Shown: piece by piece, positions 1-61,992 of the stretch
Layout of the letters: the number at the start of each line of letters is the position of its first letter
Numbering within the stretch: position 1 is the first letter of the stretch
Source of the DNA: Schmidtea nova
Lineage: Eukaryota
Assembly (NCBI GenBank): GCA_044892505.1
Contig: CM097882.1
Coordinates: forward strand, 283,030,001-283,094,000
Direction: 5' to 3'
Length of the DNA: 64,000 nucleotides
The notes under the pieces: model-generated
Told to the model about the DNA's origin: nothing
Seen by the model: the letters and a program-made list of their open reading frames with translations, nothing else
Database searches by the model: none
Program-made: the position numbers and the translations under genes

Positions 1-1
1 A

Positions 2-3000
2 ATTGGATATATCTTTGTAAGTTATCGTCTTGGTTAGCGATTTTGTACACCATTCCCTAATATTCCTGAATAATGCTTCTTTTTCACTTTCGAATTTACA
101 CTCTTCTTTGTTTTTGGACATTATGATATTTCCTCTATCTAATAGCGTTAACAGTGTTTTCTGATCACAAACGAATTTTAATAGAAATCGTAATAACGCG
201 TTTTGTCCTTTGCTATATACTTCGTTTATATTTAACACCCATGTATCATTTTCGGATCTTTTCCATTTTATTAGCTTGCGTATTGTTTTGCAGTTACCGA
301 TTTTTATTGCTTCCTTTATTATATCACCTTTGATCAGTTCATCTATTTCCCAAGTGGCCTTCTCGATTATTTGTTTGAGCATTATCTGATTTGAGCTCCA
401 TATTGCGTGATTCAAGACTGTTTTGTTTTCTCTATCGCGTTCTGTCCAGTTGAAATCGGCATTTATCAAAAGGTCTATTATTGCTTTATCCGATTTGTAG
501 ATGGCTGCTACCATTAATGGTGTTTCTTGTTCGCTATTCCCAAAACCAAGGTGTTGGTTTGTTTCCTTAGCGATTTTTAGAAATTCTTTTACTCTCTCTA
601 CTTCTCCCCATTTTATGGCGTTATGTAATGCTGGTTGTCCTCCTATGTCTTCTAGTGAAAGTATTTCTGGAATCTTTTCCAGTAGTTCTGAAATGACTGG
701 TTTTGTTGGTAGTCCCCTTGCGTAATCACTAATTATCGACTGAATATCTCTTAATATATCGTCTCTGAAATGCCATTTTCCCATTATTTCTCTGGCTTTT
801 AGTACAATTTCCTTGTTTCTTTTTTCTCGTTGATTGTTCTCTGCTTCGGTGCTTTCATTGGTTGCTCTGAGCATATTCATTCTGGCTGTCTGGGATCTGG
901 TTATTATTCGTTCTTCTGGCGCTGTGGTTATTGTCTTTGGTACTTTTTTACATCTGCATGTATTAACGTATATTGGTCGTATCAATGGTCGATTAACAAG
1001 TTTTACCTTCACATTGTTTTCCTTTTTGTATATAACTTCGTAAGGGCCTTTTCCTGGTCTTTGTAGTTTTTTAACGGTTCCTGGTATTATTTCTGGGGTT
1101 TCTATCATTACCCAATCTCCGGGTTTAAGATCATTTGTTTTAACATTTTTCTTTTGATCGTGTAGGTCCTTGTAACTTTCTTGATAAAACTTTATGTTTA
1201 GTTCTGCTGTCTTCCATATCTCTTGCATTCGTTCTTTGAATTTGGTGACGTAATCATCTTCCTCCATATATTGAGACAAAGGTGGTTGATATTCAAGATC
1301 TATTGGCATATTGCATTCCCTTCCATACATTAATTGAAATGGACTCAATTTTGTTGCTGCGTGTATCGACATTCGGTATGCCATTAGACATAGCTTTATG
1401 TACTCATCCCAATCTGTTTGGTGTTTGCTTACATAATTGGATAACATTCGAATCAATGTGCCGTTAAATCTTTCCGTTTGTCCATTAGTTTGCGGATGAT
1501 ATGGTGACGTTCGTAATTTGGCTATTCTGAAGTAATTTGTTACTTCATCTAGTATTTCGCTCATAAAATTTGTTCCTTGATCTGTTAGTATTTGTTTCGG
1601 GGTTCCGTATCGACAACATATTTCCTCTACTAAAATTCTTGCTACGGTCTTTGCTTTTTGATCCGGCATCGCAAATGCTTCAGGGAATTTAGTCAAATAA
1701 TCCGTTATTACCAATATATATTGATTCCCGTTTAAACTTTCTGGCAATGGTCCTATTACATCCATCGCAATGGTAGTCATTGGTTCCGCTGGTATTGGCA
1801 TGGGTTTTAAGGGATTTTTCCATTTCTTCCCACTATCCTTTCTTGTGGCACAAGTTAAACAGTTCTTTATCCATTCCTTTACGTCTTCGTCCATTGTTGG
1901 CCAATAATATTTTTGTCTCATGCGATTTAATGTTTTCTTATCGGACATGTGTCCTCCCAACTTTCCGTCATGGTATTGAGTTATTATCTCTTTTCGTCTA
2001 TTACCTGGCAGACACATTAATCGTTTCTCTCCATCTCGTATTAATAACCATCCTTTTTCTATTGTGTATCGATGTTGGTATTTCCTCATGTGTTCCTTTA
2101 ACTCTGCATTGTCTTTGAATACATCCATATTTCGTGAGCTTAGGAATTCTATGATGGGTCTTAGTTCTTTATCCTCTTGCTGATCTTTCTTTAACTCACT
2201 GAAATCCAAATCCTCTGCTATCATTATGCATATTCTTTGCACTTCTGGGTCTGTTAGTTCTGGAAACGTTAATCTTGACATGCAATCTGCGTTGGCATTC
2301 GCTTTTCCTGATTTGAATTTTATATCTGGTGAATATTCTTGTAATTGCATCGCCCATCTCATTAATCTGCTGGATGTTTCCTTATGTTGTCCTAGCCATA
2401 CAAGTGGTTGATGGTCTGTGGTTATGCATATGACGTGTCCCCATAATAGATATTTGAAGTGTTTTATTGCTAATATTATTGCCAATGCTTCTCTTTCCGT
2501 TACTGAATAATTCTTCTCGTGTTTCTTGAATGTTCTGCTATAATATCCGATTACCCGCTCTTTTCCCTCGTCATCATATTGTCCTAACACTGCTCCTGCT
2601 GCATATCCACTTGCGTCGGTTGCGAGTAAAAATGGCTTTTTGAAGTCCGGGTGAACCAATATTGGTGCAGTTATTAGCTTATCTCTCAATGTTTCAAAGG
2701 CTGTTTGTTGTTCGCTTCCCCATATGAACGATACGTCTTTCTTTACTAGCTCCTGGATTGGTTTTGCAATCCCTGCGTAATCCTTTATGAATTTTCTATA
2801 GTAACCGCATAATCCGAGAAATTCTTGGATCTGCGTTATCGTCTTTGGTACTGGACATTCTTTTACTTTATCAATGTTTCTGGGATCTGGTTCCTTTCCT
2901 TTTGCGGACACAATATGTCCTAAGAATGTCACTTTCTCCTTTGCCCAATCGCATTTCGATGGTTTGAGCTTGAGTTTCCATTGTCTCAATCTAACAAATA

Positions 3001-11701: not shown

Positions 11702-12677
11702 TTCAATTCCGCTGTCTGTAGTTATTTTACTTTCGTTTCCTCTTGTTTCTAGTTCACTGTTAGGTTCGTCACTCGAATTTCGGTCGATCTCAGTTTCTTT
11801 TGCTGATTCGTTATCTGATGCTTTACTATCGTTATCGGTATCGTCACTTTCTGTTTCTTGTTCTACTTCGTCTTCTATTTCTTCTATATAATCGTTGTTG
11901 GTTTTGTCGACTTCTATTTCACTTATTGGGTTTCTCTCGGGTTCTGCTTGATTTTCTTTGTTGCTTGAACTGTTGCTTGTTACTGATAATTTATCGTTTT
12001 CGATAATCGACTTTTGTATTATTATCTGCCTTGCTTTACTTCCTTTTGGGCCTTTCTGATTATTATTCTTGGTAGCTTTATTCTTTTCTGCTGGTTTTAT
12101 TATGACACTCTTTTCTCCTTTTCTCAACGGAATTACTTTTGTATACTCAATTTTCCTGTCTTATCGTGTTCCGATTCTTTTCTTCCTTAGTTGATTGGTT
12201 TGGTTTGATTGATTTATCTAAAATACAAATGTCACTTCAACGATACTCTATTGTTATCGTTGCGCTTTTATTCCCTTTTTACGGGACTTCTCATTACTGG
12301 GTTTCTATTATTTTTCCCCATTCCCAGATTCCCCTTTATTTAAGTCTATTTAAATTATCTATATACTAGTCACAATTATCTATTTAGTCATAACAATTAT
12401 CTATCGGTTATTAAAATACATCAATTATTTTTCCCGCGGTCTCCCAATTTATTTGTCGTTCGAACGCTCTAATTCCCTGAGTCATTTGACTCGATTATTA
12501 TTTTATCATCTCTTTATCTTTCTCTCTGCTAGCCTCTAATTATTAATTCTGCCGGTCTTTCCGGTCAGCTCCTATTTCTCAATTCTACTTGCATGCATTA
12601 TTTTAGGTCGCATAATCAGCTTTACTCGCATTTCTCTATTATCGGTGCGCACTATTCTCATTATCGTCGACGATCAC

Positions 12678-13794: not shown

Positions 13795-14256
13795 TTATAA
13801 ATAAACTACAATTTTATCAGCTACAGAGAAATTGCACATGGGGCACTCATCACACTTATTCGCACAGTTTTTACAGAATCGAAAATGTCCACATGGTAAA
13901 AACATTATTTGGATTTCACTGTTTTCGCATATGTAACATTGTTTATATTGTTTTGCTGCCTCGACCCCTTGCGACATCCATCGGTTATATGTTAGGCTTA
14001 ACTGCTGTTCTATATGTCGGCATCTGATATTCAACTCGGCATCCTCTAATCGTGCTTTGTACCATTTATATCGCGTATTTATATCGAGTTTATTTACTTT
14101 CTCTATGATTTTTATTAACTCAGTTGTTTCCTCAGTTTGTGTCGTAGGTTCCTCATATTCGGATGCTCTTATTCGGGTTATTTTTTCGCAGACTGTCTCA
14201 AATGTTTCGTTCTCGGTGTTGAAAAATTCCTCGATTTCTTTCAGTTTTTCCTCCAT
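13795..14256 (-). CDS. IAP/MDM2-type C-terminal RING-HC protein (153 aa, no BIR domain) between PBS and gag
   Basis: CYICENSEIQIMFLPCGHFRFCKNCANKCDECPMCNFSVADKIVVYL-stop: C3HC4 spacing with the short hydrophobic tail typical of IAP RINGs; coiled-coil-like N-terminus. Confidence 0.85.
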   Translation of the reverse strand: MEEKLKEIEEFFNTENETFETVCEKITRIRASEYEEPTTQTEETTELIKIIEKVNKLDINTRYKWYKARLEDAELNIRCRHIEQQLSLTYNRWMSQGVEAAKQYKQCYICENSEIQIMFLPCGHFRFCKNCANKCDECPMCNFSVADKIVVYL

Positions 14257-14562
14257 TTCCTAGATAATTTATTTAATTACTGTGTTAATATTATTCGAAA
14301 AGTAGTACTGTGTTTCGTTTCTGACAGTTTTATAGCCTCCCCCCGTGTTTCGGTAAAATGTCGTCCCGACCTGTTATTTATGAATGCATTTGTTTAATTT
14401 ATCTACTAATTTGTTTTAATTCTCTGTTTGTAATTATCTATTTCCACGCAACTCACTCTTATCTCGATTACTCTTTCGGTTACTATTTCTACTCACAAAA
14501 TTCTGATTTTAAATTTCTCTGTTGTCATTGGGTTCACATTTTCCGCATAAAAACAAAGTTGA

Positions 14563-45160: not shown

Positions 45161-45277
45161 TGTAAATTGGAGTAGGAAATTTTTTAAAATAGTGGTAAAA
45201 AAAGTTTTCAATTACGCACACACACCATCTCGGTTATGATACTCATCTGTCAATTACCTTTTGTTTGATATACATAT

Positions 45278-46071
45278 TGTTGGGTATTTTGTTGAAAGTC
45301 GGTTCTAATTTCTGACTCCTGGTGTTCTTTTAACAAATAATTAACCCAACACAATAACCTTTATTTCAATATCACACTTTATCACAATGATTGAACAATA
45401 TAAGAACTGTCTTTTCACACTGAACTTAACTGCTTTCAAGTCACTTGCTGCAAGGGATAAGTCTCCCAACGGAAGATCTCCCTTTCTGGTGCGCAAACAA
45501 ATGAATTAAATTTTACTCTACAACACTACCTTTTCGGACTCTTCTTCTAATTTTAATCTGTTCATTTTGAAATCTTATCTCTTCGACCACTGGCCCCACA
45601 TTGCAATTTGCTTCTCCTTTTATAGTGCTTCCTCCTTAATGCTTGATTGTTCTGTCTCCCAATTTTGACATTTTAATCTACGACTCAAATTAAACTGTCA
45701 TATTGTAATTTAGTAGCTCTCGCCGTTTCCACATCCTTAGAGCAAATTGAACTGTCACTTCGCTTGAGCGGGTTTCTCTCCTCTCTCGGGCTCTCCATTG
45801 GCTCGGGTTTCCCATTGTCTCGGGCTTTCCCTTAGCCAATTAATTCTTAATTAATATTTTAAATTTTTAATTGTTTCTTTCTGGGGACCCCCCATCGATT
45901 TTATTTTTATTTATTTGAATTCGTCTCATAATTTGGCACACACCCATACCAATTTCCCCCATGATATATTAATTTTAAATTTTATTAATTTTTTAATTAA
46001 TGTTTTAATATTTGGTGATTTTTGCAATTTTATTACTTTTAAATTTTGAGTCACTTTGACAAACCCCAACA
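45278..46071 (-). repeat. 3' LTR of element 2 (794 bp)
   Basis: TGTTGGG...CCCAACA termini; identical to 60038-60831 except at 45769 and 45922. Confidence 0.98.
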
Positions 46072-46086
46072 TATCTCCCCCCTTTA
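46072..46086 (-). promoter_or_regulatory. Polypurine tract of element 2
   Basis: Minus strand AAAGGGGGGAGATA immediately before the 3' LTR TG. Confidence 0.9.
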
Positions 46087-47058
46087 ATTAAGATTCGTCC
46101 TCTAATCTATCTTATAATTCAATATATAAATATGAGAGCACCCCGAAAGGCAACTTTTACTGCTACTAATAATAATAATTCTACTAAATAGAACAATAAT
46201 AAAAATAATATTTTGTCCGTCCAAATCTAAATTTACTTTTCCAAAATATTTAACACCTCTTTTTAACGAGAAGGGATGTCAATGACNNNNNNNNNNNNNN
46301 NNNNNNNNNNNNNNNNNNNNNNNNNNNNNNNNNNNNNNNNNNNNNNNNNNNNNNNNNNNNNNNNNNNNNNNNNNNNNNNNNNNNNNNNNNNNNNNNNNNN
46401 NNNNNNNNNNNNNNNNNNNNNNNNNNNNNNNNNNNNNNNNNNNNNNNNNNNNNNNNNNNNNNNNNNNNNNNNNNNNNNNNNNNNNNNNNNNNNNNNNNNN
46501 NNNNNNNNNNNNNNNNNNNNNNNNNNNNNNNNNNNNNNNNNNNNNNNNNNNNNNNNNNNNNNNNNNNNNNNNNNNNNNNNNNNNNNNNNNNNNNNNNNNN
46601 NNNNNNNNNNNNNNNNNNNNNNNNNNNNNNNNNNNNNNNNNNNNNNNNNNNNNNNNNNNNNNNNNNNNNNNNNNNNNNNNNNNNNNNNNNNNNNNNNNNN
46701 NNNNNNNNNNNNNNNNNNNNNNNNNNNTCTTTATCTCGTTTATTTTTTTTGAGCCAGTGAACTGGCAAAAATCTAAATTTAAATTTAACTATGATATTAA
46801 ATCCTGTCATTCACGGAGCAATGGGCTGGCGAATGATGGGTGTTTATTCGTATTATAAAAGAAAATATCGAGACATATCAATCTTCCACTTCAGAATTTA
46901 GAAAATATCGACCTTTGTATAGAACTTTTGAAAAATGTATACTGCATTTATCAGAAGCAATGAAATTCGGCTTAATCTGACTATCTTAAGCTTTATTTTA
47001 AGTAATCTCGGAGGCATCAAAATAAGGGAAAATTCTCACGTAATTTTTTTATTTATTT

Positions 47059-47101
<43 letters not shown>

Positions 47102-47237
47102 TTAATAATAATAATAATAATGTGTTATTTATTGTCAAAAAATTAAATATTCATTGATATATTCATCAACGATGTTAGCAACTGTTGTAATAGATAATAA
47201 GTAGTGTGTTCGAGAAAAAAAAATTTCAATGATAATG

Positions 47238-47276
<39 letters not shown>

Positions 47277-47729
47277 TACCTGATCCTACCTCCTTATCTC
47301 ATGCTCATAATATTACTATAATACTAATAATAAGTGACGGTCGCCTTCTTCAGTCCCTGTCCAGGGATCCAAGCCCCGGTGACTGAAATTGGACACTTTC
47401 ATTTTATTATTATGTCCATATTTAATTTCAATAACTTTGTAACTTTGATAACGTCGGTGTATAATAACAATGCTGATATACTACAATTAATAATACGATT
47501 CTGATACTATTAATAATAATAAACTCTGAATTTTTAAATCATTGATTATAATTCTGACAATTTTTATTTTGATAATAAATTTTTTTTTTGATTTTTTTTT
47601 TTTTTTTTTATATTTAATTAAATTTTGCATTATTTTTATCAATAATGATTTGGGGGTTACCATTAAACAAATAAGAGACAAAATTCGCTAAAGTTTTATT
47701 TATAAATTTATAAATACAAATATAAAATT

Positions 47730-49134
47730 TTAATTGAATTTTAACTCAAAACTTTCTTCACCATGGCAATATTGGACAATTGTTCCTTTTCGCACATACG
47801 TCTTCCCTGCATATGTTATCGAATTTTCTATTTGCAAATTTGAACCCACTTTTCTTTTCCTAGTTTCTTTGGCTGTTGAACCCTTTATAAGTGTTGACTT
47901 TGCTCTTCCACTAATTGAGCTTGTAAATATTGCCAAACTTTCTTCGATGGGCTCTAGACTAGTTTCCTCTGCAAAATTCAATTGTATTTCAATTTCCATT
48001 ATTGATGGTTCTTCTATTGTCAGATCCACTGTTGTTGTCATTTCCGATGTGCTCTGTGTTGCTCGTAAATTTCTGTATTCCTCCAGTGAATATATTTTTG
48101 AGGGCTGTTTCCTGGGAATCATCACATCATCGATCCATTGACTCTCCACTTTCAAATAAACTTTTCTAATGCTTTTCACATCTTCCAACGCAGTGTGGAT
48201 GCTTGTTTGTGTTTTTCCCGCATAATTCTTCAGTGATTGTTTTTAACTTAAACCATTCTCCTTTTCGGCTTACCTTCATTGATTTTAACACTTGCGCTGC
48301 TGCTAAATCTCGAATGCCATATACTTTATTGATCCAAATTCCAAGATTATTCAATTCCGCTTGGAGATCATGACCAATCAGTATTTTCCCTATGGTCAAC
48401 CTCTGAATATCTTTCATCTCCTGATATTGATCTGCCTGATTTCTACTGGCCACTTCCGTTATTCCGTGGATTTTGGAATTAAAATGTCTTATTTTCCCTC
48501 TTGGTGTAATGTATGTATTTTTTATAATTTTTCCATAATAATTTAGGATTGCGATTGACAACGGAATCATTTTTCCGCTTTCGGAGCTTCCATATTCCGC
48601 ATCGATAAACAAAATTCGATTACGGATTTCTTCTATATCCATCTCCTTTCTAACAAATGAGAGCTTCCTTTTTAACATTTCATCTGAAATTGCCATCAAA
48701 TTCTCATCATTAGCTTCTGTCGGATGTGTACTTGGAATTTCTCCAGCTTCATTTTCAATTCTGGTTTCGATAACCATTATGGCATCCTCGTTTGCGGCTC
48801 GCAGCAAATTGAACATTATTTCCCTCTGCAGTTTCCACGTAGTAAATTTTTCCAATTCCTTCCGAATCTGATTCCTTTCGTTCAACATTTCTACCGTGCC
48901 TTTTATTATGTGGAGGTAATATTGTTCTTTTCTTGCTAACTGCATTTCCTCTAATAACTTCATTTTGTTGTTTCTGTGCACTTTTAGAATTTGTATTTTC
49001 ATTCTTCTGTCATCACTTCGAAGGTAGTTGGGAATTTGCAGATTGTTGTTGATCTGGAATTTTTGTCCGGCATGGCTTCTGCTGAGTCTGGCGTAACTGT
49101 CGTATACCGATCTTGGCCATTGTAATTGTTCCAT
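47730..49134 (-). pseudogene. REX4/ISG20-like DEDDh 3'-5' exonuclease, frameshifted near 48190-48215
   Basis: ILFIDAEYG (ExoI), KIHGIT, ILIGHDLQAEL (ExoII), IRDLA, FKLKTITEEL, then in the adjacent frame IHTALEDVKSIRKVY (ExoIII HxxxxD). Confidence 0.85.
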
Positions 49135-49551
49135 TTGCTAAAATTATTGAATTTTTAATTTACTTTAATTTTAGAATTTGAAACTATGATCGAGGTTGGG
49201 CACCCAAAGGATATCGTCTCAATCAATAGTTGTATAAATAAAAATATTTAATTAATTACCTATTTATTTGAATTTGAAAAATTCGGAATCTCAGAAATTT
49301 TGAAATTCAAAATTTTGAGTTTTTGAAATTTTAAATCTAACGGTTTAACACGTATCCTATATACCCTCTTAAATTTCCTTCCCCTTTTTAATTTCTTCTT
49401 TTTATCCAATCAAATTCATTTGCCAAGCGATCCTTGAAAGCAGTTTTACATCAAAAATAAAAAGTGTTTCATAAAATGTAATGCTATCAATAAATAAATA
49501 ATAAATTCGACACTACTGTTACTCATATTGCATGCAGAAATCATTATCTTA

Positions 49552-50720
49552 CTACACAAATGTCTCATCGTAGACAAACCAAGGTCTCGAAGGTTCGGAT
49601 TGATTTGCCGGAGATTGAAATGATTTTTCGAATATGCACAATACGATAGCAATGATAACTGTTAGAATTACTGCTAAAGAAATGATGATTATAATCAATG
49701 TTATGCACATTTTTTCATTATTCATTTTTTGGAACAATTTAGTTTGATTTTTTACAATTGATTTTTTGATAGGAATGTTATTAAGAAATGTTGTGGTTTG
49801 ATATTGGTGTGAATCGTTTGGGTATGCTTCATCATATGAGACTTGAATGAGTTTATTTTCGACAAACGTTATCTGCCATAGATTTGAATATAGAGTACGA
49901 CGATAATATTTGATTTTTACGAGAACTAATTTCGACATTGGGTTTGCTTGCGATTGTTGAAAAATTATTGTTTGAGATTGTCTTTTGCTGTCTAGAATTG
50001 CTTGCATTTTCCCATAACAATATATAACCGCCTTTTGATTCGGGTCTGTTTGCCTGGTGACTTTTATTGCTTGATGGTAGATGTGAAATTGAACTCTTCG
50101 TTTCATTAATTAATGTTATCGTTTGTTGACTGGTGTGAACTTTAACCCATTGATTCTCTGTATTGGTGCCATTTTCATATAAAGTCTTCTCATAATAGTG
50201 AATCACAACATTATAAGTCTGAAATAACTTTAACTTAATATAATTTATGAAGGGTTTTCTACTATTCAATGTGTCTATTGCATAATTTTGGAAAATCGTT
50301 TTTACTTGTTGGGATTCTTGGGGTTCCCAATATACATTAATACTATTTATCGAAGGTTCAATTGATACCAAATTGTTCCGATTTTTTGTCCAAATTTCTA
50401 GGCGTATTATATTACGTATTTCCGTAGTATTCTTTTTAGGATCTAGCTGTGCTACCAGCCAGGGATATTTGTAATTCATTGTCAGATGACGTGCAACATG
50501 ATAATTATTATTATAATTCAATTTCACCGGGGGTTCAAAATAATTTAATAAATTATTTATTTCTACTTCCTCATCTTTTTCACAGGAATAAATCCACACA
50601 ATCTGAGTACATGTTGCAAATGTATTGATTCTCTCTAACAATGGGATTCGTTTTGTTGCAACCGTTGGAAGAAATCGTACTGCATTCGCACACAAAACAT
50701 TCAACATCATTACTGTAGAA
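49552..50720 (-). pseudogene. Second type-I membrane glycoprotein downstream of integrase (frameshifted)
   Basis: Signal-like KILLISTVMMLNVLCANA in ORF 49853-50977, a beta-rich ectodomain with NxS/T sites, and TM MCITLIIIIISLAVILTVIIAIVLCIF plus a short tail in ORF 49552-50106. Confidence 0.6.
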
Positions 50721-50967
50721 ATTAATAAAATTTTATTAATGTAGCTTGATGGGGCTGGATTTCTATTATACCTCTGTTTGATTGCTTCATCTTCCTTCCG
50801 TTTTGATCGTAATGGGTATTGTTTTAACTCTTCCACCGGCACCTTTTTACAGCGGTTTACATGAACAACTATTGTTCCAGCTTTTTTATTATTCTGTGGA
50901 CGCAACTTTAGATTAGTCTCTGTAGCATCACATACTACATATGGTCCTTTAAAAGGTCTTTGCAGTT

Positions 50968-53640
50968 TCACTGACAATCCTTTAGTCGGCTCTGGTTTAT
51001 TTCATACACTAAATCTCCAATTTTAATATCATGCGCATGTGCGCGTTTATCATAGCACTCTTTATAAGCTTCTTGATGGTGTTTTATTTTAAGACCTGCT
51101 TGACCCCATACTGACTGCAATCTCTCTTGCATAATTACTTTATAATCGGATACGTCCATATATTGGGAAATCGGTGGCGGAAATTTCAAATCAATTGGCA
51201 TATTATTACGTCGTAAATACATAAGGTAGAAAGGTGTTTCACCGGTACTTTCATTAACTGCATTCCGATATGCAAATAGGCATGGTTTAATATACAAATC
51301 CCAATCTTTTTGCTTTCTATTTACATAAGAAGATATCATATTTATTAGTGTTCCATTGAATCTTTCCACTAAACCGTCTGTTTGTGGATGATAAGGTGAT
51401 GTACTTATTTTCATTATTCCGAATAACTCCGTGACTGATTTGAATAAATCACTTTGAAAATTTGTTCTTTGATCTGTAAGTAATTTTTTTGGTGCTCCAT
51501 ATCGGAATATTATGTTTTCAACAAATATTTTTGCTACTGTCTCTGCTTTTTGATTTGGCATAGGATAAGCTTCTGGCCATTTTGTTAAATAGTCACAAAA
51601 GACAATAATGTATTTATTTCCATTTGTCGTTTCTGGTAGTGGACCCACGATATCCATTGCCGTCATTTCCATCGGCGCTTGTGGTACTGGCATTGGCTTT
51701 AAAGGAACTTTAATTTTCTTTCCTGTATTTCTCCTGGTTAGACATATTTCACACGTATGACACCACTGTTTGACCTCTTGCTCCATCGTGTCCCAATAAT
51801 ATTTTTGCTTTAATCTCGATAATGTTTTACGTGCTGATAAATGTCCTCCCAATGCTCCATCATGATACAACAACAGTAATGATCTTCGATGTTTTGTTGG
51901 AACGATAATTAATAAATTTTCATTTTTCACACATTTTAGCAAACCGTCATGGACAACATATTTATGTTTTTCCTCAACAACATGTTTCCAGTCACTCTCT
52001 TTTTTGATGGTGACAGCATGTTGACGTAGCCGATTTAATTCAATATCACTTTCTTGATCATTTTGTAATTCTTTTAGATTATTTACAGTTTTAATTGCCA
52101 TAAATATTGTATTTTCATAATTTATTTCATTTCTACCATCCACATTTTCGTCATTAATTCTCGATAACGCATCGGCATTGGCATTTGACCTTCCTGTACG
52201 GTACTTTATATCGAAATCATATTCTTGCAGCGCAATTGACCATCTGATTAATTTGCTGGCTGAATCTCTGTGCCTCATGAGCCATTGCAGTGGATTATGG
52301 TCTGTAAAAACAATAAACTTTCTACCGATTAGGTATTGTCTGAAAGTAGTTATTCCATATACCAACGCTAAAGTCTCTTTTTCGATTGTAGAATAATTCT
52401 TTTCATGTGGCTTTAATGTTCGACTAGCATAAGCAATTACATGATTTTTTTCACCTTCCACTTGTTGACCCAACACTGCTCCTAATGCGAAATTACTGGC
52501 ATCTGTCATTAATATGAACTGTCTCTTAAAGTCTGGACATCTCAAAATCGGTTGTTTTAATAAACTTTCTTTCAGAATATCAAATGCATTTTGTTGAGCC
52601 GTCATCCATTTAAATTTAGTTTGCTTTTTAAGTAGTATATTCAAAGGTTGTGCTACATGCGAAAACTTTTTAATAAATTTTCTATAATAACCTGCTAAAC
52701 CAAGAAATTGTCGAACTTGATCAACATCTTTTGGAATTGGATAATTTTTGATTTTCTCTACATTTTCGGGATTTGGCTGTAATCCACGTCTTGAAATAAT
52801 ATGACCCACATAAACAACTTCATACTTTCCCCATTCGCATTTTGATGGTTTTATTTTTAGATTTGCTTTTAATAATCTTTTGAATACTGTTTCAACATCT
52901 TTTAAATGCTCTTGAAAACTGCCTGAAAATATTATTATGTCATCAATATAGACTAATGCATGTGGAATGTCTCGCAATACGAAATTCATGCCTCTCTGAA
53001 AAGTAGCAGGTGCTCCAGTTAATCCAAATGGTAAAACGTTAAACTCGTATAGGTCTTTACCATCTGAAAATGCAGTTTTTCTCTTGTCATCCTCTTTTAC
53101 TTTAAATTGGTTGTATCCTTTATTTAAATCAATTACTGTGAAAAATTGTACCTCGCCCATTTGATCAAACATTTCCTGTGGAACTGGAATAGGATATGTA
53201 TCTTTTCTCGTGACCTGATTCAACTTTCGATAATCTACACAAAATCGCAAATCTCCATCTTTCTTTTTAACAACCACTATCGATGATGACAATGGTGATG
53301 AACTGTCTCGTATAATATTGAATTCCTTCATTGCTTTAATTTGTCGATCACTTTCTTCTTGATAAACGTAAGGAATTCTATATGGTCTCAATTTGATAGG
53401 AGTTTCATCCAGCAAAGGTATCTCATGCTCAATTATTTGAGTAAGTCCCAAATCGTATTCATGTTTAGCAAACACACTTTTGTATTTCATCAATAGTGCT
53501 GTAAATTCTTGCTTTTGCTCAGCTGTTAAATCATTGCTTGTAACTTGAGGTTGCTTATAAATTTTGATATTTCTCGGTAGCTTTTGAGCTTCTTCAGCTT
53601 CGATTTTTGTCAGTTTCCCCACTTTTGTTTTGGGTTGCAT
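50968..53640 (-). CDS. RT-RNase H-integrase portion of Pol (element 2)
   Basis: FCVDYRKLN, LPFGLTGAPATFQR, YIDD, TDASNFALGAVL, TDHNPL, YHDGALGGH..CEIC, MDIVGPLP, PYHPQTDGLVERFN. Confidence 0.97.
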   Translation of the reverse strand: MQPKTKVGKLTKIEAEEAQKLPRNIKIYKQPQVTSNDLTAEQKQEFTALLMKYKSVFAKHEYDLGLTQIIEHEIPLLDETPIKLRPYRIPYVYQEESDRQIKAMKEFNIIRDSSSPLSSSIVVVKKKDGDLRFCVDYRKLNQVTRKDTYPIPVPQEMFDQMGEVQFFTVIDLNKGYNQFKVKEDDKRKTAFSDGKDLYEFNVLPFGLTGAPATFQRGMNFVLRDIPHALVYIDDIIIFSGSFQEHLKDVETVFKRLLKANLKIKPSKCEWGKYEVVYVGHIISRRGLQPNPENVEKIKNYPIPKDVDQVRQFLGLAGYYRKFIKKFSHVAQPLNILLKKQTKFKWMTAQQNAFDILKESLLKQPILRCPDFKRQFILMTDASNFALGAVLGQQVEGEKNHVIAYASRTLKPHEKNYSTIEKETLALVYGITTFRQYLIGRKFIVFTDHNPLQWLMRHRDSASKLIRWSIALQEYDFDIKYRTGRSNANADALSRINDENVDGRNEINYENTIFMAIKTVNNLKELQNDQESDIELNRLRQHAVTIKKESDWKHVVEEKHKYVVHDGLLKCVKNENLLIIVPTKHRRSLLLLYHDGALGGHLSARKTLSRLKQKYYWDTMEQEVKQWCHTCEICLTRRNTGKKIKVPLKPMPVPQAPMEMTAMDIVGPLPETTNGNKYIIVFCDYLTKWPEAYPMPNQKAETVAKIFVENIIFRYGAPKKLLTDQRTNFQSDLFKSVTELFGIMKISTSPYHPQTDGLVERFNGTLINMISSYVNRKQKDWDLYIKPCLFAYRNAVNESTGETPFYLMYLRRNNMPIDLKFPPPISQYMDVSDYKVIMQERLQSVWGQAGLKIKHHQEAYKECYDKRAHAHDIKIGDLVYEINQSRLKDCQ

Positions 53641-54696
53641 CTAAATAGTTTTTGTGCCACAATTCGCTATTCGCACTGGCACTAATTTATTTTTGACTCT
53701 CACTATCTCATCACACATAGGTAAATCATATTTTTCTATTAATTTTAGATTTGGTTCGAATATGCATTCTTCACCTGGTGCATTCGTTACATCTGCATAA
53801 TATATTATTTCGCTTTTTGATGGTATATCAACTAATTGATTTATGAAAACTTCTCCTACCTCCTCAATAACCTCACCAGTTTGACCTTTTATTATTTTCC
53901 CGGTATTTAAATCAAGTGAAATTCCTTTTAACTGTTCCATAACGTCCATACCGATAAGGCATTTTACGGGGCTTCTTCTCATTACTGTTACCCAGTGAAT
54001 AATCTCCTGATCTCCAATCTTCAATTTTGCGTTAACTTTTCCTATAATATTCAGCAGATTATGCGACATTGATTTGATACGCTTATTTGTCGGCCTCATC
54101 TCTTTTCTTTCTCGACTCGTTAATAATTCCTCTGACACTATCGTATGACTTGAACCTGAATCTAGTAAAGCTTGCACTCTTCGACAATTAAACAAAACAT
54201 CGATCCGAGGTTGTTTTCCTTCCACCTTCATTGTCATTAATGCATAACTGCACGGTAATCCAAGCATATTTTTGCGTTCGATTTCCGCACTTGTTGGTTC
54301 AATTTTCTCTGATGTAATTCGAATCTCATCATCTAATGGTTTCATCTCTTTTAATTTTTCGTTTGGATATACAGGTGCTGTTGGTACAAATGTTGGAGTA
54401 TACCATCGTGTTAACGTATCAATTCCGCCTAATTTTGGCATTGGTTCGAGCAAGAACCTAGTTTCTGGTTCTGTTTTATTTTTCAATATCCCTCTTCGCA
54501 AATATTTCAACTCGGTATTACCTCCGTCATTGTTATTGTTCTGACTATTGATCTCTTCCGATTGACATAATGATTCCTCACTTTTTTGATCCTTTCTCAA
54601 TTGTGCTCTTACATTTGCCATTTCTTTGTATTGATGATTTGTAATGAAAAATCTGGCCAAAAATGGATACAACCGATTATTATTTTCCATGACCAT
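53641..54696 (-). CDS. Env cytoplasmic tail/linker plus aspartic protease (element 2)
   Basis: VQALLDSGSSHTIV...CLIGMD; same frame as the RT ORF, separated from it by a single TAG. Confidence 0.92.
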   Translation of the reverse strand: MVMENNNRLYPFLARFFITNHQYKEMANVRAQLRKDQKSEESLCQSEEINSQNNNNDGGNTELKYLRRGILKNKTEPETRFLLEPMPKLGGIDTLTRWYTPTFVPTAPVYPNEKLKEMKPLDDEIRITSEKIEPTSAEIERKNMLGLPCSYALMTMKVEGKQPRIDVLFNCRRVQALLDSGSSHTIVSEELLTSRERKEMRPTNKRIKSMSHNLLNIIGKVNAKLKIGDQEIIHWVTVMRRSPVKCLIGMDVMEQLKGISLDLNTGKIIKGQTGEVIEEVGEVFINQLVDIPSKSEIIYYADVTNAPGEECIFEPNLKLIEKYDLPMCDEIVRVKNKLVPVRIANCGTKTI

Positions 54697-57600
54697 CCGG
54701 AAATAGCGTATATTCTATGTGCTGACAACACTTGCGATACTATCACTTTCATTGTTACTGCAATTACGTAGATTCCAATTAAACCGGCACAAGCTTGCCC
54801 TAAGAACATAAATTTACCCCAAATCTTTTCCATTGTTTTATATGTGGCTCTTTTGAAATGATCGGGTGTTAACAAATATTCGTAGTTAACTTTTCCTTCT
54901 CCATTTGGTAATATTGTATCAACCATTTCTGAAATTACCCTTTCCTTTTTTGATGGAAATAGCAAGTTTCTTTGAGCCTCTTCGATGTCTTCACTCGCAT
55001 ACAACCCCATTTGTGCCATTTTATTCAATGACGTAAAATTTACCAAATATTCTAAATTTGTTAGCTCTAATTTATCAGGAGTTTTAACTCCTCGGTAGTC
55101 TGGTAACGCTACCCATGAATCCGGCGTTAAGCGATATAACGGAGCAAGTAATCAATTACATTGTAATATTTTTGGTTTAGCCTGTACTTCGAGCAATATT
55201 CGAGTGATTGGTTCCATAAATCGTAACTTGCCACCAACACTTACGGGTAATTCATTCGTACATTGTTCATATTTCGCAATCTTTACAGCAACTTCCTTAC
55301 ATTTGAAGCTGTACAAAGCTTCTCCAAAAATTCTCGTGAAGACCCCACTTTCCGATATCAACATAGGTGCTACCAAATTTGGGTTTGTGACTGCCATAGC
55401 CATCCGATTTCGAAGAATCTCTTTATTTAATTTACAGTCATTTAGGATCATTTCTCTATATACATTCTCCATGACGTTCTGACTAAAATGGAATAAATAA
55501 TCAATTTTATTATTAAAATAGTGCGTTAATTTAATGTCGCCTGTATAAACTCTCGTTTTTGCGTCTTCAACTATTCCCTTTGATACATAGACACCTTTAT
55601 AATTTGTTGCATACACCACTCTTCCACATTTATTAGTAGGTTCCTTTTTTATGAAACGCATGCGGTCCGTTGGCGATGTTGACATCAACACTGCACTTGT
55701 TTGTCTGGTCATTATCGGAATCGATTTAATTGACTCTTTTGGTTTATAATTCAGAGCAAAACTATCAGGTCTTTCTTTGAATTGTTCTCCGATTATTTCT
55801 TTAAAATTCATTGTCTTTAAATGAGCCAAATTACATTTATTTACTTTAACATCATAAACTAAAATTGATTCTCCCGTTTGACAATTTGTCTGTTTCATAT
55901 TGCAAAATGGATGTGTTTGCAATTTACCTGTATCATCATCAAATGCTCCTTCGAACTCTCTCAATTCTGTAAGGTACTCTTCAAGTACTACCGTTTTATC
56001 CACAATTTTACCATCCATTTTATACGGTTCACCTTCGCAATCACCATTTGCTTTCATGGTTCCTTTCACAACTACTGTCTCTCTCGTTCTATGATTCAGT
56101 TTGGCTTTTAATCGAATTTCCGAACTTATTTTTAATTCTCCGGTTTGAAATGCTGTTAAACCATTTTCTGGAAAAATTTCAACGGGTCTAGGTATTGCTC
56201 TCACTTTTATCAATGACGTGTGACTCCATTTTCCACAATAAAACACAAATGTTGTATGTTTGACAATACACTCTCTAACTTTAGTTCGTCGTAAATCTGA
56301 CTCTTGATACACATGGTATTTTACATCATTTTCGATTTGTAATTTACTCGGATAGGCATCTGGGCATTCTGACATATCTACCACTGAGTAAATCTTTCCA
56401 ATTTCGGTTTGGGAGCAATCATATGCAACCAATGACGTCGCTTGTGCAATAACTGTACACAAGATAATCATTGTAAACATCAACCATGGGAATATTCCGA
56501 TTCTCTTTGTTTTCGAACTGACTTTATCACATAATTCTCTTGTCTTTTCCTCATTTTCTTTTATATCTAGTGGTGGACACAATATCTTCCAGCCACCCTT
56601 TTCTTTTACCCAATTTATTAAATATTCATTAAGCATCCTGGCTGCCGTATCTATTAAATCATCCAACTCTTTCGACTTTACAAACGCATACGTTCCTATC
56701 TCTAAAATCGCATACGTCAAACTCGTCAATACTACCTCCCTATTCACTTCCTTTTGGATCAACTCTTCAAAAACCTTTCTCTCACAGAAATTATTTCCTC
56801 TACCAAATCGTTGTACTACTTCAGGAAGCCTATTTTTCAATTCTTTGACTATCTCTTCCACATCTTCCTCCACTTGTAATTCTATCTTAAACATTGGATA
56901 TATCGTTTTAAGCAGATGCTTTAATATCTGTTTTGTTTCATCTACTTCTTTTTCAACTCTTACCAAATTTCTCTTTATTTCATACAAAGTTCTAGGTTTC
57001 CCATTTTTATTGCTAACTTCATTAAGCACATCTGATTTTTGTCTTTCCGCTTCCTGTACCTGATCTCTCACTATTGGATTCTTCTGAAAACTGCCATCTA
57101 TAATAGTCTCATTTTCTTCAGTTTCTTCGATTTCCTCTTCCCCTTCGTCTGATTCTGAATTATCTAATTCTTCCATTCTTCCTACTTGTACTTCCTTCAC
57201 CGCTACTATTCGATTTATTACATATCCATTACTTCCCTCCATACTTAAATATCCCTCTTCATTTACTTCTAACGGTAAACACCCGCAATCATATAGATAC
57301 TCGTCATCATCTAGCAGTTCCCCTTTATACCTCAACGTTATGATTCCATCCGTTCCTAACATTTTCGAAGCTCTTCTACGTACCCTTTTTACCTTTGTGC
57401 ACCAATGCTCTTCAGTATATTCCGTCTTTCCACGCTCTTCATAATCTATTGCTATAACTAAATGATTCTGCTCGACTCTGTCTTTTCTAAGCTCTTTACC
57501 CATTTTCCTCAATAAGCTTTTAAGCTTTTTACTGTATCTAGTTCTCCCAAATAAATATGGTCGTATTAAATTCGCGATTTCTACTTTATCTTTAGATTCA

Positions 57601-58520
57601 AGCTCACATTCCTCGATCATTTTTAATTTGTCATTTATTTCATTTTCATCTCCACTATATAATGCATCATTTAACTCTTTTGTAATTTCAACTGGATCTC
57701 TTTTAATTATCACACAATCTTTTTGTAACGTAATTATTTGCAACTCGTTTTCATTACCTGGAATAAACCCACAATCTATTAAATATTCGTTATCTTCTAA
57801 TTTTCGATTTTTAAATCTCAACTCTCTCATTAATCCATCTCGTTTGTCTGTTAATTTATTTTTTAAATCTCTCACACAATCATTGGCGTCACAACGTATA
57901 CAATTTACACTTTTATCACTCTCATCAACAACATCAATAAAAATAAAATCTAACCATTCCTTTTCTCGAAACATTTTCCCAAATATTTTCATCATATCTT
58001 TTATTTCGTCTCTATCCTTTGAATTCACTTCACAATAACTCGCACATACATTAATTACACTTTTTAATTTCCTCATATTCAATGACATTTGACTCAATTC
58101 TTTTAGCGAACTCATTATTTTGGATGAATCTTCTCTTCTCGCTTCTATTAATTTTTCAATTCTTGTTATAATCATTGTCGATAATTCAATTCCTAGATCA
58201 TCTTTCACATCTTTTCTCCTCGATTCTTCTTCCGTCTTTTCTTGTGGATCATACATCATATGGTTATCCATTTCCTCGTCGGATTCAAATTTAGACATTA
58301 GCCGATCCAAACGTCGACCTATTTCTTTAACTTCGCTTTGGATTCTTTCTTTGAAATCATCGGGCTGAACAAATGCTACATTGTCATTCAGAGATTTATC
58401 ATTTTGAAATCGGATTGTCTTCTTTAGTATTGGTCTTTGGAACTTGTCGTTATTTCTGGGACATGATCTGGCGATATGTCCATACCCTCTACATGAGTGG
58501 CATTGAATTTGACCTTGCAA
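54609..58520 (-). pseudogene. CCHC - Ubl x2 - Bcl-2-like - signal peptide - gB/chuvirus-like Env - TM (element 2), with an in-frame TGA at 55152
   Basis: ORFs 55152-58520 and 54609-55046 share a frame. Ubl at about 57730-57955 and 57260-57465; BH1/BH2 at about 56580-56790; signal IGIFPWLMFTMIILCTVIAQA; env motifs co-linear with element 1; TM FMFLGQACAGLIGIYVIAVTM. Confidence 0.85.
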
Positions 58521-58586
58521 ATTAACCTTGTCTCTTTGTGGTGACGGTGATGTTGACGGAGATCTTGATTTAGCATAACAATTTCT

Positions 58587-59632
58587 CTACACATGTCCTT
58601 TCTTTCCGCAATTGTAGCAGTGCAGAGTATCATTGTTTCGTTGTTCCACATTGCTAAATTTATTAAAACTTTTATCACCATTACCTTTCATCCACTCTGG
58701 CCACATTCGCCTTGGGCTCTGCGTACTACCTTTGAACCAACATTGACTACTATTATGACCCATCTTTTGGCAATTATTACATTGGATTGGAGTTGGGCTT
58801 CTTTGGGATCTGTTTTTGAGCCAACATTGATTCACATGATGTCCCATTCTTTGACAATGGCTGCATTGTATTGGCATTTCTTTCTCCTCCATTGGAGCAT
58901 TAGTTGTTTGACTTGATTGGAATTTGGCTTTGAATTTTGGCGAAGGACTGCTATATTGTTGAAATCTGTTGTTCTTCTCAGGAGTTACTGATCGTTCTTG
59001 TTTTTGTTCCATCATTGCAAACGATTCTGAATTTGATTGTGTACTTTTCAAATTAAGCTCAATTTTCATGGCCTTTTGATTAATTCATCGAAGTTGTTGA
59101 AATCGACATAGCATAAAGCCTTTTTGATTTCCTTTTTAACTCCCGATAAAAATTGATCTTGCAACAGTTCCCTTACTTGCTTTGCCACTTCTGGTTGATC
59201 GGGTTTGGTTTCGAAAGCTTTTTCTGCAAGAGTCGTTAGATGATAAGCAAATTCACTTACAGATTCATCAGATTTTTGCATTCGATTGTAAAATTTTTGG
59301 CGCATAATCCTTTTGATATCTCCTCCGATCAATTTAGCGGCTAATGAATCTTTAAGTCTCATCCAGTCATTTCCGATTGTCCTTTTGTCAATTTGTTGCC
59401 ATACTTCTCTGGCTGCTCCCTTTAAATACAAGGGCAATCTTTGTATCATCGTGGCTTGGCTCCATCCATACGCATTGGCATACATATAATAGTCTGCCAT
59501 GAAATCGACAAATTCAACTGGATCTCCTCCATATTGGTTAACTGGTAGCTTTTGACAACTAGCGAGATCATTGCCATTTCCTGCATGACTTGTCGACATC
59601 GGCGCTTCATCATTACTATTTGAATTGCTCAT
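58587..59632 (-). pseudogene. Gag of element 2 (frameshift near 59066; TAG inside the third zinc knuckle)
   Basis: YGGDPVEFVDF..RLPLYLKGAAREVW, then CSHCQRMGHHVNQC, CNNCQKMGHNSSQC, CYNCGKKGHV*RNC. Confidence 0.9.
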
Positions 59633-60016
59633 ATTATTCTGATATTTCGTTTGGCTTCTTAATTGACAAAATGGTCGAGTTGGTAACGTTTTCTCTCGTC
59701 TAAATTTTAAAATATCAATTATTAAATTTACCCTTTATTAGTCTTTATTTTCTCAAACTTCAATTTTCACTTTTTCACGATTCAACTTTTATTCACACAA
59801 AAATTTCCAATTTATTTCTAAGAATTTACTTTTCAATATAATTAATTTATTTTCACAATTCTTTTTCAACTTTTTCAATATTTTCAATTTATTTTCAATG
59901 CTTTCAGTTTCAAATTTCTCTCAATATCTACTCTATTCACTAACGATATCACCGCTTTTCACACGTTTTATTGTAATTTATTCAATTAATTCTCCACCAA
60001 TTCTTCACCGACTTTG

Positions 60017-60034
60017 ATCACGTCGGGCTCACCA
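60017..60034 (-). promoter_or_regulatory. Primer-binding site, tRNA-Trp-like (element 2)
   Basis: Minus strand TGGTGAGCCCGACGTGAT matches the tRNA-Trp PBS TGGTGACCCCGACGTGAT at 17/18; 3 nt from the LTR end. Confidence 0.88.
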
Positions 60035-60037
60035 AAA

Positions 60038-60831
60038 TGTTGGGTATTTTGTTGAAAGTCGGTTCTAATTTCTGACTCCTGGTGTTCTTTTAACAAATAA
60101 TTAACCCAACACAATAACCTTTATTTCAATATCACACTTTATCACAATGATTGAACAATATAAGAACTGTCTTTTCACACTGAACTTAACTGCTTTCAAG
60201 TCACTTGCTGCAAGGGATAAGTCTCCCAACGGAAGATCTCCCTTTCTGGTGCGCAAACAAATGAATTAAATTTTACTCTACAACACTACCTTTTCGGACT
60301 CTTCTTCTAATTTTAATCTGTTCATTTTGAAATCTTATCTCTTCGACCACTGGCCCCACATTGCAATTTGCTTCTCCTTTTATAGTGCTTCCTCCTTAAT
60401 GCTTGATTGTTCTGTCTCCCAATTTTGACATTTTAATCTACGACTCAAATTAAACTGTCATATTGTAATTTAGTAGCTCTCGCCGTTTCCACATCCTTAG
60501 AGCAAATTGAACTGTCACTTCGCTTGAGTGGGTTTCTCTCCTCTCTCGGGCTCTCCATTGGCTCGGGTTTCCCATTGTCTCGGGCTTTCCCTTAGCCAAT
60601 TAATTCTTAATTAATATTTTAAATTTTTAATTGTTTCTTTCTGGGGACCCCCCATCGATTTTATTTTTATTTATTTGAATTTGTCTCATAATTTGGCACA
60701 CACCCATACCAATTTCCCCCATGATATATTAATTTTAAATTTTATTAATTTTTTAATTAATGTTTTAATATTTGGTGATTTTTGCAATTTTATTACTTTT
60801 AAATTTTGAGTCACTTTGACAAACCCCAACA
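60038..60831 (-). repeat. 5' LTR of element 2 (794 bp)
   Basis: Direct repeat of 45278-46071, adjacent to the PBS. Confidence 0.98.
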
Positions 60832-61992
60832 ATATTATAAGGTTTTAAAAATTTGAATCTTGGACCTTTCGAGGATATGAGCTTCGAACTCACCTTTGAA
60901 GTACCTTTACTTTGATATCTATATTATACATATACTATATAGTTTTGAAGATTTTGGATCCCTTGAAAGTTTTAAAGGTTTGAAGGTTTAACACTCACCA
61001 TTAACCTTTGTAAGTATGAGCATGATACTCACATTTCAAATACCTTTTGTTTGATATGTATATTATGAGGTTTTAAAATTTTTGAACCTTGGATTCTTTA
61101 AGGGTATGACCTTCAAACTCACTATCAAAAGTCCTTTTGAATGATATATAACTTGTAAGGTTTGAAAAACATTTAAGTTTGGACACCCCTTGAAAGTTAT
61201 TGACACACCATAAACCTTCGATGGGATGACCATCATACTTACCTCTCGAATACATTTCTAGTGATATATATATATATATATATATATAATAAGGTTTGAA
61301 AAAAGTTGAAGGTTTTAGACCTTTTGAAGGTTCAGGACCCTCCATAAACCTTCAAGGGTATGGCCATCCTACTCAACTCTCAATTGCCTTTCGAATGATA
61401 TATAACTTGTAAGGTTTAAAGATTTTTGAAGGTTTTGCACCCTTTTAGGTAGTATCACCCACCAACCTCGAGAGTTTGACAATAATACTTACATCTCAAA
61501 TACCTTTTGAATGATATATAATATATAAGGTATGAAAAAATTTGAAGGTTTTGCATCCTTTAAGGGTCGAGCATCCATTTTAGACCTTCGAGGGTACAAC
61601 CGTCGTGTGCACCTCNNNNNNNNNNNNNNNNNNNNNNNNNNNNNNNNNNNNNNNNNNNNNNNNNNNNNNNNNNNNNNNNNNNNNNNNNNNNNNNNNNNNN
61701 NNNNNNNNNNNNNNNNNNNNNNNNNNNNNNNNNNNNNNNNNNNNNGAAGGTTTTAGACCCTTTGAAGGTTCAGAACCCTCCATAAACCTTCGAGGGTATA
61801 ATCCTTGTATAGACCTCTCCAAGACCTTTCGAACGATACCCTTGTTTGAAGGTCTGACTATATCTGACCTTTGGAAATTCAAATTTGAAATTTGAAATGA
61901 GTCATCGATGAATGATAATGATGAAACATCGATGACCTCATGCCGATGAGTCATAGAAATTTTTATAACCCCCCCCCGAGGGGTATGTCTTT
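60832..61992. repeat. Diverged GAAGGT-rich tandem array ending in a TIR-like segment
   Basis: Recurrent tacc(t)tttg..tgatatata..taaggttt..aa..tttgaaggtttt..accc units of roughly 110-150 bp, ending ...gagtcat..ggggtatgtcttt. Confidence 0.75.

Follow-up and report, generated by a model that had tools for sequence, protein, structure and literature searches.

The Ty3/gypsy LTR element described here, 15.5 kb long and located on the minus strand of the window (the whole stretch of 64,000 nucleotides that was analysed, from a genome of 1.25 Gb), harbours a second membrane protein. This protein is in frame with integrase and forms the C-terminal module of a Gag–Env(gB-type)–Pol polyprotein. Judging from its sequence, we consider the chances about even (a probability of roughly 0.5) that the module acts as an accessory attachment and junction-targeting helper of the gB-type fusogen, and co-translation with gB together with a conserved tail leads us to favour a role in entry or spread.

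The element was assigned to Ty3/gypsy by its LTRs with a target duplication (ATAT at 60832-60835 and 45274-45277) and by its PR-RT-RH-IN order. The features of the window copy are listed below in the direction of transcription; signals and helices were called from hydropathy and the (-3,-1) rule.

60038..60831, minus strand: 5' LTR, 99.6% identical to the 3' LTR, with TG..CA termini
58587..59734, minus strand: Gag and zinc knuckles (Pfam Retrotrans_gag 1.6e-7, zf-CCHC), broken in the window copy
56480..58586, minus strand: zinc knuckle, ubiquitin-like and Bcl-2-like region, then the internal env signal (weak Pfam matches to ubiquitin, E=0.027, and Bcl-2, E=0.012; the env signal is a hydrophobic peak)
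54609..56480, minus strand: gB-type (class III) fusogen Env and membrane region (PF24664, 2e-52 and 1e-25), broken in the window copy
50968..54714, minus strand: protease, RT, RNase H and integrase (Pfam matches), broken in the window copy
50804..51001, minus strand: integrase C-terminal GPY region, with GPY at 50947 and a Y-x-L-R-S terminus
50681..50731, minus strand: predicted internal signal (KD 2.1-2.2 over 15 aa), the stretch ending A-N-A
50387..50680, minus strand: ectodomain domain 1, FN3-like at motif level only
50126..50386, minus strand: ectodomain domain 2, FN3 fold predicted
49830..50125, minus strand: ectodomain domain 3, beta-rich, holding the window copy's frameshift near 50100
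49708..49829, minus strand: variable stalk with sequons and with indels between subfamilies
49630..49707, minus strand: predicted transmembrane helix of 26-27 aa (KD 3.3-3.4, the polyprotein's strongest peak)
49552..49629, minus strand: cytoplasmic tail of 25 aa ending E-T-F-V-stop (stop at 49554-49552)
47730..49137, minus strand: ORF2, separate and DEDDh-exonuclease-like, broken in the window copy
45278..46070, minus strand: 3' LTR, preceded by a purine tract

A single open frame of 3,381–3,402 aa was found in 23 of 124 scored copies. Two natural unbroken copies (scanned at 3,318 and 3,307 aa) carry the knuckles, gB, PR, RT, RH, IN and the module in one frame, natural copies serving purely for description, and PF24664 was matched in an unbroken natural copy with an E-value of 1e-87 over aa 1010-1670, with the gB-type Env between gag and pol. 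The subfamilies of the window group share about 56-95% identity. The window copy is broken in gag, env and pol, besides its frameshift near 50100. This last break is private to it: the first-pass annotation had staked its proposal on the two flanking ORFs joining in other copies, and in each of the 11 other close copies a single frame spans the break, which in 7 is open from signal to stop. The integrase GPY, signal-like stretch, sequons, transmembrane segment, short tail and single frameshift had all been located correctly, and the ectodomain described in that annotation is present, at about 326 aa instead of the claimed ~350 aa. Its view that the protein sits in the env slot as a separate gene does not hold, since a frame continuous with integrase makes the protein the end of one polyprotein. 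The LTRs of the element (45278-60831) have diverged by only 0.4%, yet about four frameshifts and three stops lie in its frame; the breaks of the window copy may be recent damage or an assembly error.

A separate spliced message for the membrane protein was considered and rejected. Subfamilies A, C and D and copy L101 have a CAG ahead of the Met pair; because it is absent from B and family E, and because conservation extends to the hydrophobic residues that precede the Met, such a message appears unlikely. One RNA run, filed under another organism's label, gave 46 reads of 12 million and no joints.

The module is laid out as an internal signal, three beta domains of ~90 aa, a stalk, a transmembrane helix and a 25-aa tail. 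Small residues occupy positions -3/-1 of the signal in subfamilies A-D, and hydropathy and the -3/-1 positions are compatible with a cleavable signal in all families. In natural unbroken copies, hydropathy peaks most strongly at the env signal, the env membrane region, the second signal and the last helix. Sequons were found at 50431 (NTT), 50173 (NGT), 50107 (NET), 49818 (NDS) and 49749 (NQT). Sequons are enriched in the ectodomain and stalk of such copies: 6/17 and 7/24 of them fall within these 10% of the polyprotein (p=0.004 and p=0.007, respectively). With one transmembrane helix close to the C-terminus and sequons on the luminal side, the protein is predicted to be a type-I membrane glycoprotein, as initially proposed, and its ectodomain is FN3-type in predicted fold.

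Domain 2 was folded with AlphaFold2 from an alignment of 17 own-group rows and 14 family E rows with zero known FN3 sequences, an alignment that presupposes homology with family E and from which misaligned domain 1/3 rows were left out. The resulting model (pLDDT 76, pTM 0.62, with four of five models at or above 65) has seven strands. Its top match in VIA-align was the FN3 domain of LAR (Z 8.9, rmsd 2.6 A over 74 aa); Z 8 was reached by 19 chains, and FN3 accounted for nearly all of the 50 rows listed. Foldseek, the other check suggested at first pass, also returned FN3 with a probability near 1, but with E-values of 5e-3 and above and TM scores of 0.4-0.55. The leads in the ESM Atlas were all of the FN3 clan (0.85-0.89); an unnamed cluster scored 0.91, recognition being low. 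No fusogen was among the viral fold matches listed for domain 2. Domain 2 is thus predicted to adopt a fibronectin type III fold. It would share the seven-strand beta-sandwich common to the FN3 domains of LAR, sDscam, DCC, Tie2 and CD45, and the protein would share the type-I topology of these receptors and adhesion proteins, but domain 2 is only 6-18% identical to them, falls below the Pfam fn3 cut-off and lies inside a retroelement polyprotein.

The other two domains are FN3-like by motif at best, and an AlphaFold model of the whole ectodomain reached a pLDDT of 30. The hallmark of FN3 is a B-strand Trp together with the L-x5-Y tyrosine-corner motif. Both occur in domains 1 and 2, those of domain 1 in register with host FN3, and L-x5-Y is also present in families E, F and G. 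Local hhalign comparisons to host FN3 gave E=0.018 for domain 1 and E=0.31 for domain 3, both inside the shuffle range, while domain 3 matched domain 2 with E=0.0035 across 14 columns only. Global profile-profile comparison, whether with host FN3 or between the domains, gave no significant result, and at the Pfam fn3 gathering score the module had no match and family E only weak clan matches. A search of 5.8 billion proteins at near and longer lengths, run also with family F, returned nothing outside this genome, and no homologue was found in metagenome and viral contigs. Searches of PDB sequences gave only two antibody chains with E about 1, and two motif scans gave no match.

Nearly all intact tails carry a class I PDZ-type motif, for which a ligand role is putative. 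We picked 43 ORF ends of the ABC group by pattern, of which 3 were other frames and 40 true tails, and all 40 true tails fit [ST]-x-hydrophobic-stop, compared to a background of 162/2009 ORF ends (8%). The tail of L018 is frameshifted, and that of L024, which also fits, was not among the ends picked. In family E the fit was 19/19, mostly as S-T-L-C, only if Cys is accepted; the ELM class I PDZ pattern accepts Cys at the last position. The rows of families F, G and H fit in 18 of 20 cases (ETEV, MTRL, LTDL and LTAL), some of these rows being one genomic copy counted repeatedly, and the two misfits were degraded copies. Copies of one and the same family cannot be counted as independent, and the evidence amounts to about five lineages, whose endings are ETFV/ETIL/ETYV, STLC, ETEV, MTRL and LTAL/LTDL. 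The tail of family F and that of the window share a W..Y.ET.V register. ETEV is also the PDZ motif of the viral protein HTLV-1 Tax, which binds DLG1 and Scribble (PMC5882172), and the tail of HTLV-1 Env is bound by Dlg1 (PMC3395148). The HTLV-1 proteins likewise end in a class I motif (PMC3395148, PMC5882172), that of Tax identical to family F's, but here the motif, a putative ligand, is on a nonfusogenic accessory membrane protein.

Other gB families were found by a short motif scan and an integrase search of the genome, and four of them (E, F, G and H) have the signal, FN3-like, transmembrane and PDZ-motif layout of the window element. Family E, with a 2,992-aa frame, encodes a signal, one FN3-like domain, a stalk, a helix and a tail; in F (3,550 aa) and G (3,448 aa) the same parts flank about two domains, and family H is represented by degraded copies only. 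Pol identity to A is 58-59% in F and G and 49% in E and in Element 1, the window's Burro-like element, and the gB identity of families E, F and G is 39-43%. When the L-x5-Y segment was compared with host FN3, family E scored 20.5 against a shuffle maximum of 15.5 (40 shuffles) and F/G/H scored 19.9 against 12.5 (30 shuffles). The family ectodomains, which differ in domain number (one to three), had no significant sequence similarity to the window's ectodomain, nor was the first domain of F/G/H significant against window domains 1-3. The Pol tree, ((A,B),((E,Element 1)99,(F,G)100)), places the module in three of the four deep branches sampled; it is unrooted and without an outgroup, and does not give the order of gain and loss.

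Element 1 carries the following at the post-integrase position:

1..720, minus strand: Element 1 ankyrin repeats, in frame after integrase (Ank_2 9e-14), Burro-like

The ankyrins are therefore where they had been reported at first pass. Element 1 itself (window 1-12160, minus strand) has an intact Burro-like frame of 5,140 aa and many near-identical copies. The accompanying idea of an exchangeable slot stands only in part: Element 1 does hold ankyrins there, but five lineages keep an FN3-like membrane protein. Given that ankyrins replace the module only in Burro-like Element 1, the slot is mostly conserved and not freely exchanged. Element 1 has gB and many intact copies without the module, which is therefore not universally needed by a gB-type Env. 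A sister family of Element 1 has frames of about 5,685 aa, and an accessory ORF with a RING-like cysteine pattern at its end (13795-14259, minus strand) lies upstream of the Element 1 polyprotein.

Substitution patterns indicate that the ectodomain is under purifying selection. Its dN/dS was 0.055-0.24 in 9 between-subfamily pairs (Nei-Gojobori, with dS near or up to saturation) and 0.37 in the sole within-subfamily pair, which has few changes. Between A and B, the ratio was 0.04 for the signal, 0.53 for the stalk, 0.37 for the helix and 0.58 for the tail.

The element type is already published. Gag-Env-Pol order is described for planarian elements (PMC13524379, PMC6431247), and by this homology the host is probably a planarian. 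Smed_errantivirus_1-4, of the Platyhelminthes GAG-ENV-POL HSV/gB-type and about 14.5-15 kb in length, are multicopy with a gB-type Env, as is the window element (PMC13524379). By eye, the gB of the window closely matches a Smed_1 segment, that of family E Smed_3 and that of family F Smed_4 (PMC13524379). Burro/GYPSM1 shares with the window element a single polyprotein with Gag, CCHC, Ubi/SUMO-like and BCL2-like regions and an in-frame env between gag and pol, but Burro has ankyrin repeats, whereas the window element is half its size and ends in a type-I FN3-type protein (PMC6431247). Within the literature searched, including part of the eLife supplements, we found no paper describing the FN3-type protein. 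The words "fibronectin," "ankyrin," and "accessory" are absent from the main text of PMC13524379, and the parts of it examined, with some of the supplement rows, contain no post-integrase membrane protein. In the Drosophila MDG1 group of retrotransposons, sORF2 is likewise a transmembrane accessory protein, linked to transfer between cells; it is short, FAST-like and replaces Env (PMC11952523), whereas the FN3-type protein is 200-390 aa long, is predicted to have a folded ectodomain and occurs alongside Env.

We propose that the ribosome would make Gag, enter the ER at the env signal and halt at the gB membrane region. Pol would then be made in the cytosol, with re-entry into the ER at the second signal and a halt at the last helix, and signal peptidase would release three products: Gag, gB joined to Pol, and the FN3-type protein. 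Cutting at the two internal signals would leave the membrane protein 1:1 with gB on one membrane. The prediction is a retroelement polyprotein that passes through the membrane several times and has a glycoprotein on either side of Pol; a second hydrophobic segment, which follows the gB helix, may alter the exact topology. The PDZ-type tail would bind scaffolds of the Dlg/Scribble/MAGI type and concentrate budding at cell contacts, where the glycosylated FN3 array would grip the neighbouring cell and gB would then fuse. A fuller version, in which one polyprotein holds a two-protein entry system (an ancient FN3 attachment protein, its PDZ tail fixed to junction scaffolds, forming a synapse across which gB would deliver the element into neighbouring stem or germ cells), we hold only tentatively and with the odds against it. 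If true, it would be the retroelement counterpart of the split attachment and fusion proteins of herpes- and paramyxoviruses. According to PMC13524379, no entry helpers are known for gB-carrying errantiviruses, and how gB retroelements enter without herpes-type helpers is stated there as unknown. The module is a concrete, conserved candidate for such a helper and offers two handles, the FN3 ectodomain and the PDZ-type tail, in a type of host in which RNAi and imaging are routine.

A surface FN3 protein with a PDZ tail would fit host manipulation equally well. Under this alternative, which we regard as unlikely, the protein is a host-modulating surface protein or decoy that passes for an FN3 receptor or adhesion molecule of the host and ties up PDZ scaffolds, so that, as with the element's other cargo, the host cell is kept alive, quiet or superinfection-resistant. 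Viral PDZ motifs often disturb host signalling (PMC5882172), the same element carries Bcl-2-like, ubiquitin-like and exonuclease cargo, the Atlas neighbours include cytokine-receptor-like proteins, and the ankyrins of Element 1 put a cytosolic regulatory module at the same position. However, the protein is membrane-anchored and not secreted, domain 2 is strongly constrained (dN/dS 0.11) and not fast-changing, and no donor gene was identified among the 30 host FN3 loci tested.

Less probable again is that the protein works directly with gB as its trigger or chaperone, as gD/gH/gL do in herpesviruses. Herpes gB requires helpers, co-translation would fix the two proteins at 1:1, and sequons are few on gB and number six to seven on the FN3-type protein. 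Against such a partnership, the number of domains in the ectodomain ranges from one to three, whereas gB keeps about 40% identity, and Element 1 lacks the FN3-type protein. We find it quite improbable that the module is chiefly an assembly aid, a second membrane anchor for Pol that steers the polyprotein to the budding site and to which the ectodomain is secondary. In favour of this, constraint on the signal region equals that on the integrase C-terminus (dN/dS 0.04) and no other feature is shared as widely as the tail motif, but selection on the ectodomain is purifying and its sequons are kept. That the module is a relic of an older env, as the first-pass annotation had suggested, or neutral captured DNA is very improbable despite its position after pol and the broken window copy, because the break is private, dN/dS (about 0.1-0.2) departs from the neutral decay expected of a relic envelope protein, and unbroken copies, the predicted FN3 fold and retention in five lineages together largely refute a relic env.

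Further features of these elements were observed. The Y-x-L-R-S motif at the integrase end (50804-50818, minus strand) was present in 7/7 representatives of the module-carrying families and absent in Element 1; we take it to resemble the chromatin-binding motif of foamy virus Gag. A term search of PMC6042332 did not confirm this likeness. The Bcl-2-like domain (about 56480-56950, minus strand) directly precedes the env signal, which, once cleaved, could double as a Bcl-2-style tail anchor. Finally, ORF2 lies downstream in every module-carrying family (window 47730-49137, minus strand; L015, L090, L134 and L136). It matches RNase_T in subfamily B (E=1.4e-4), and the A and E versions are 21% identical (E=1e-16). 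A YAG acceptor-like site at about 49140 on the minus strand, 3-6 nt before the ORF2 ATG, was found in 5/5 copies (subfamilies A and C and two older ones) and was not seen in B. The first acidic motif of ORF2 is apparently intact in A and B and altered in E, F and G, which suggests that the ORF2 proteins of these three families are pseudo-nucleases.
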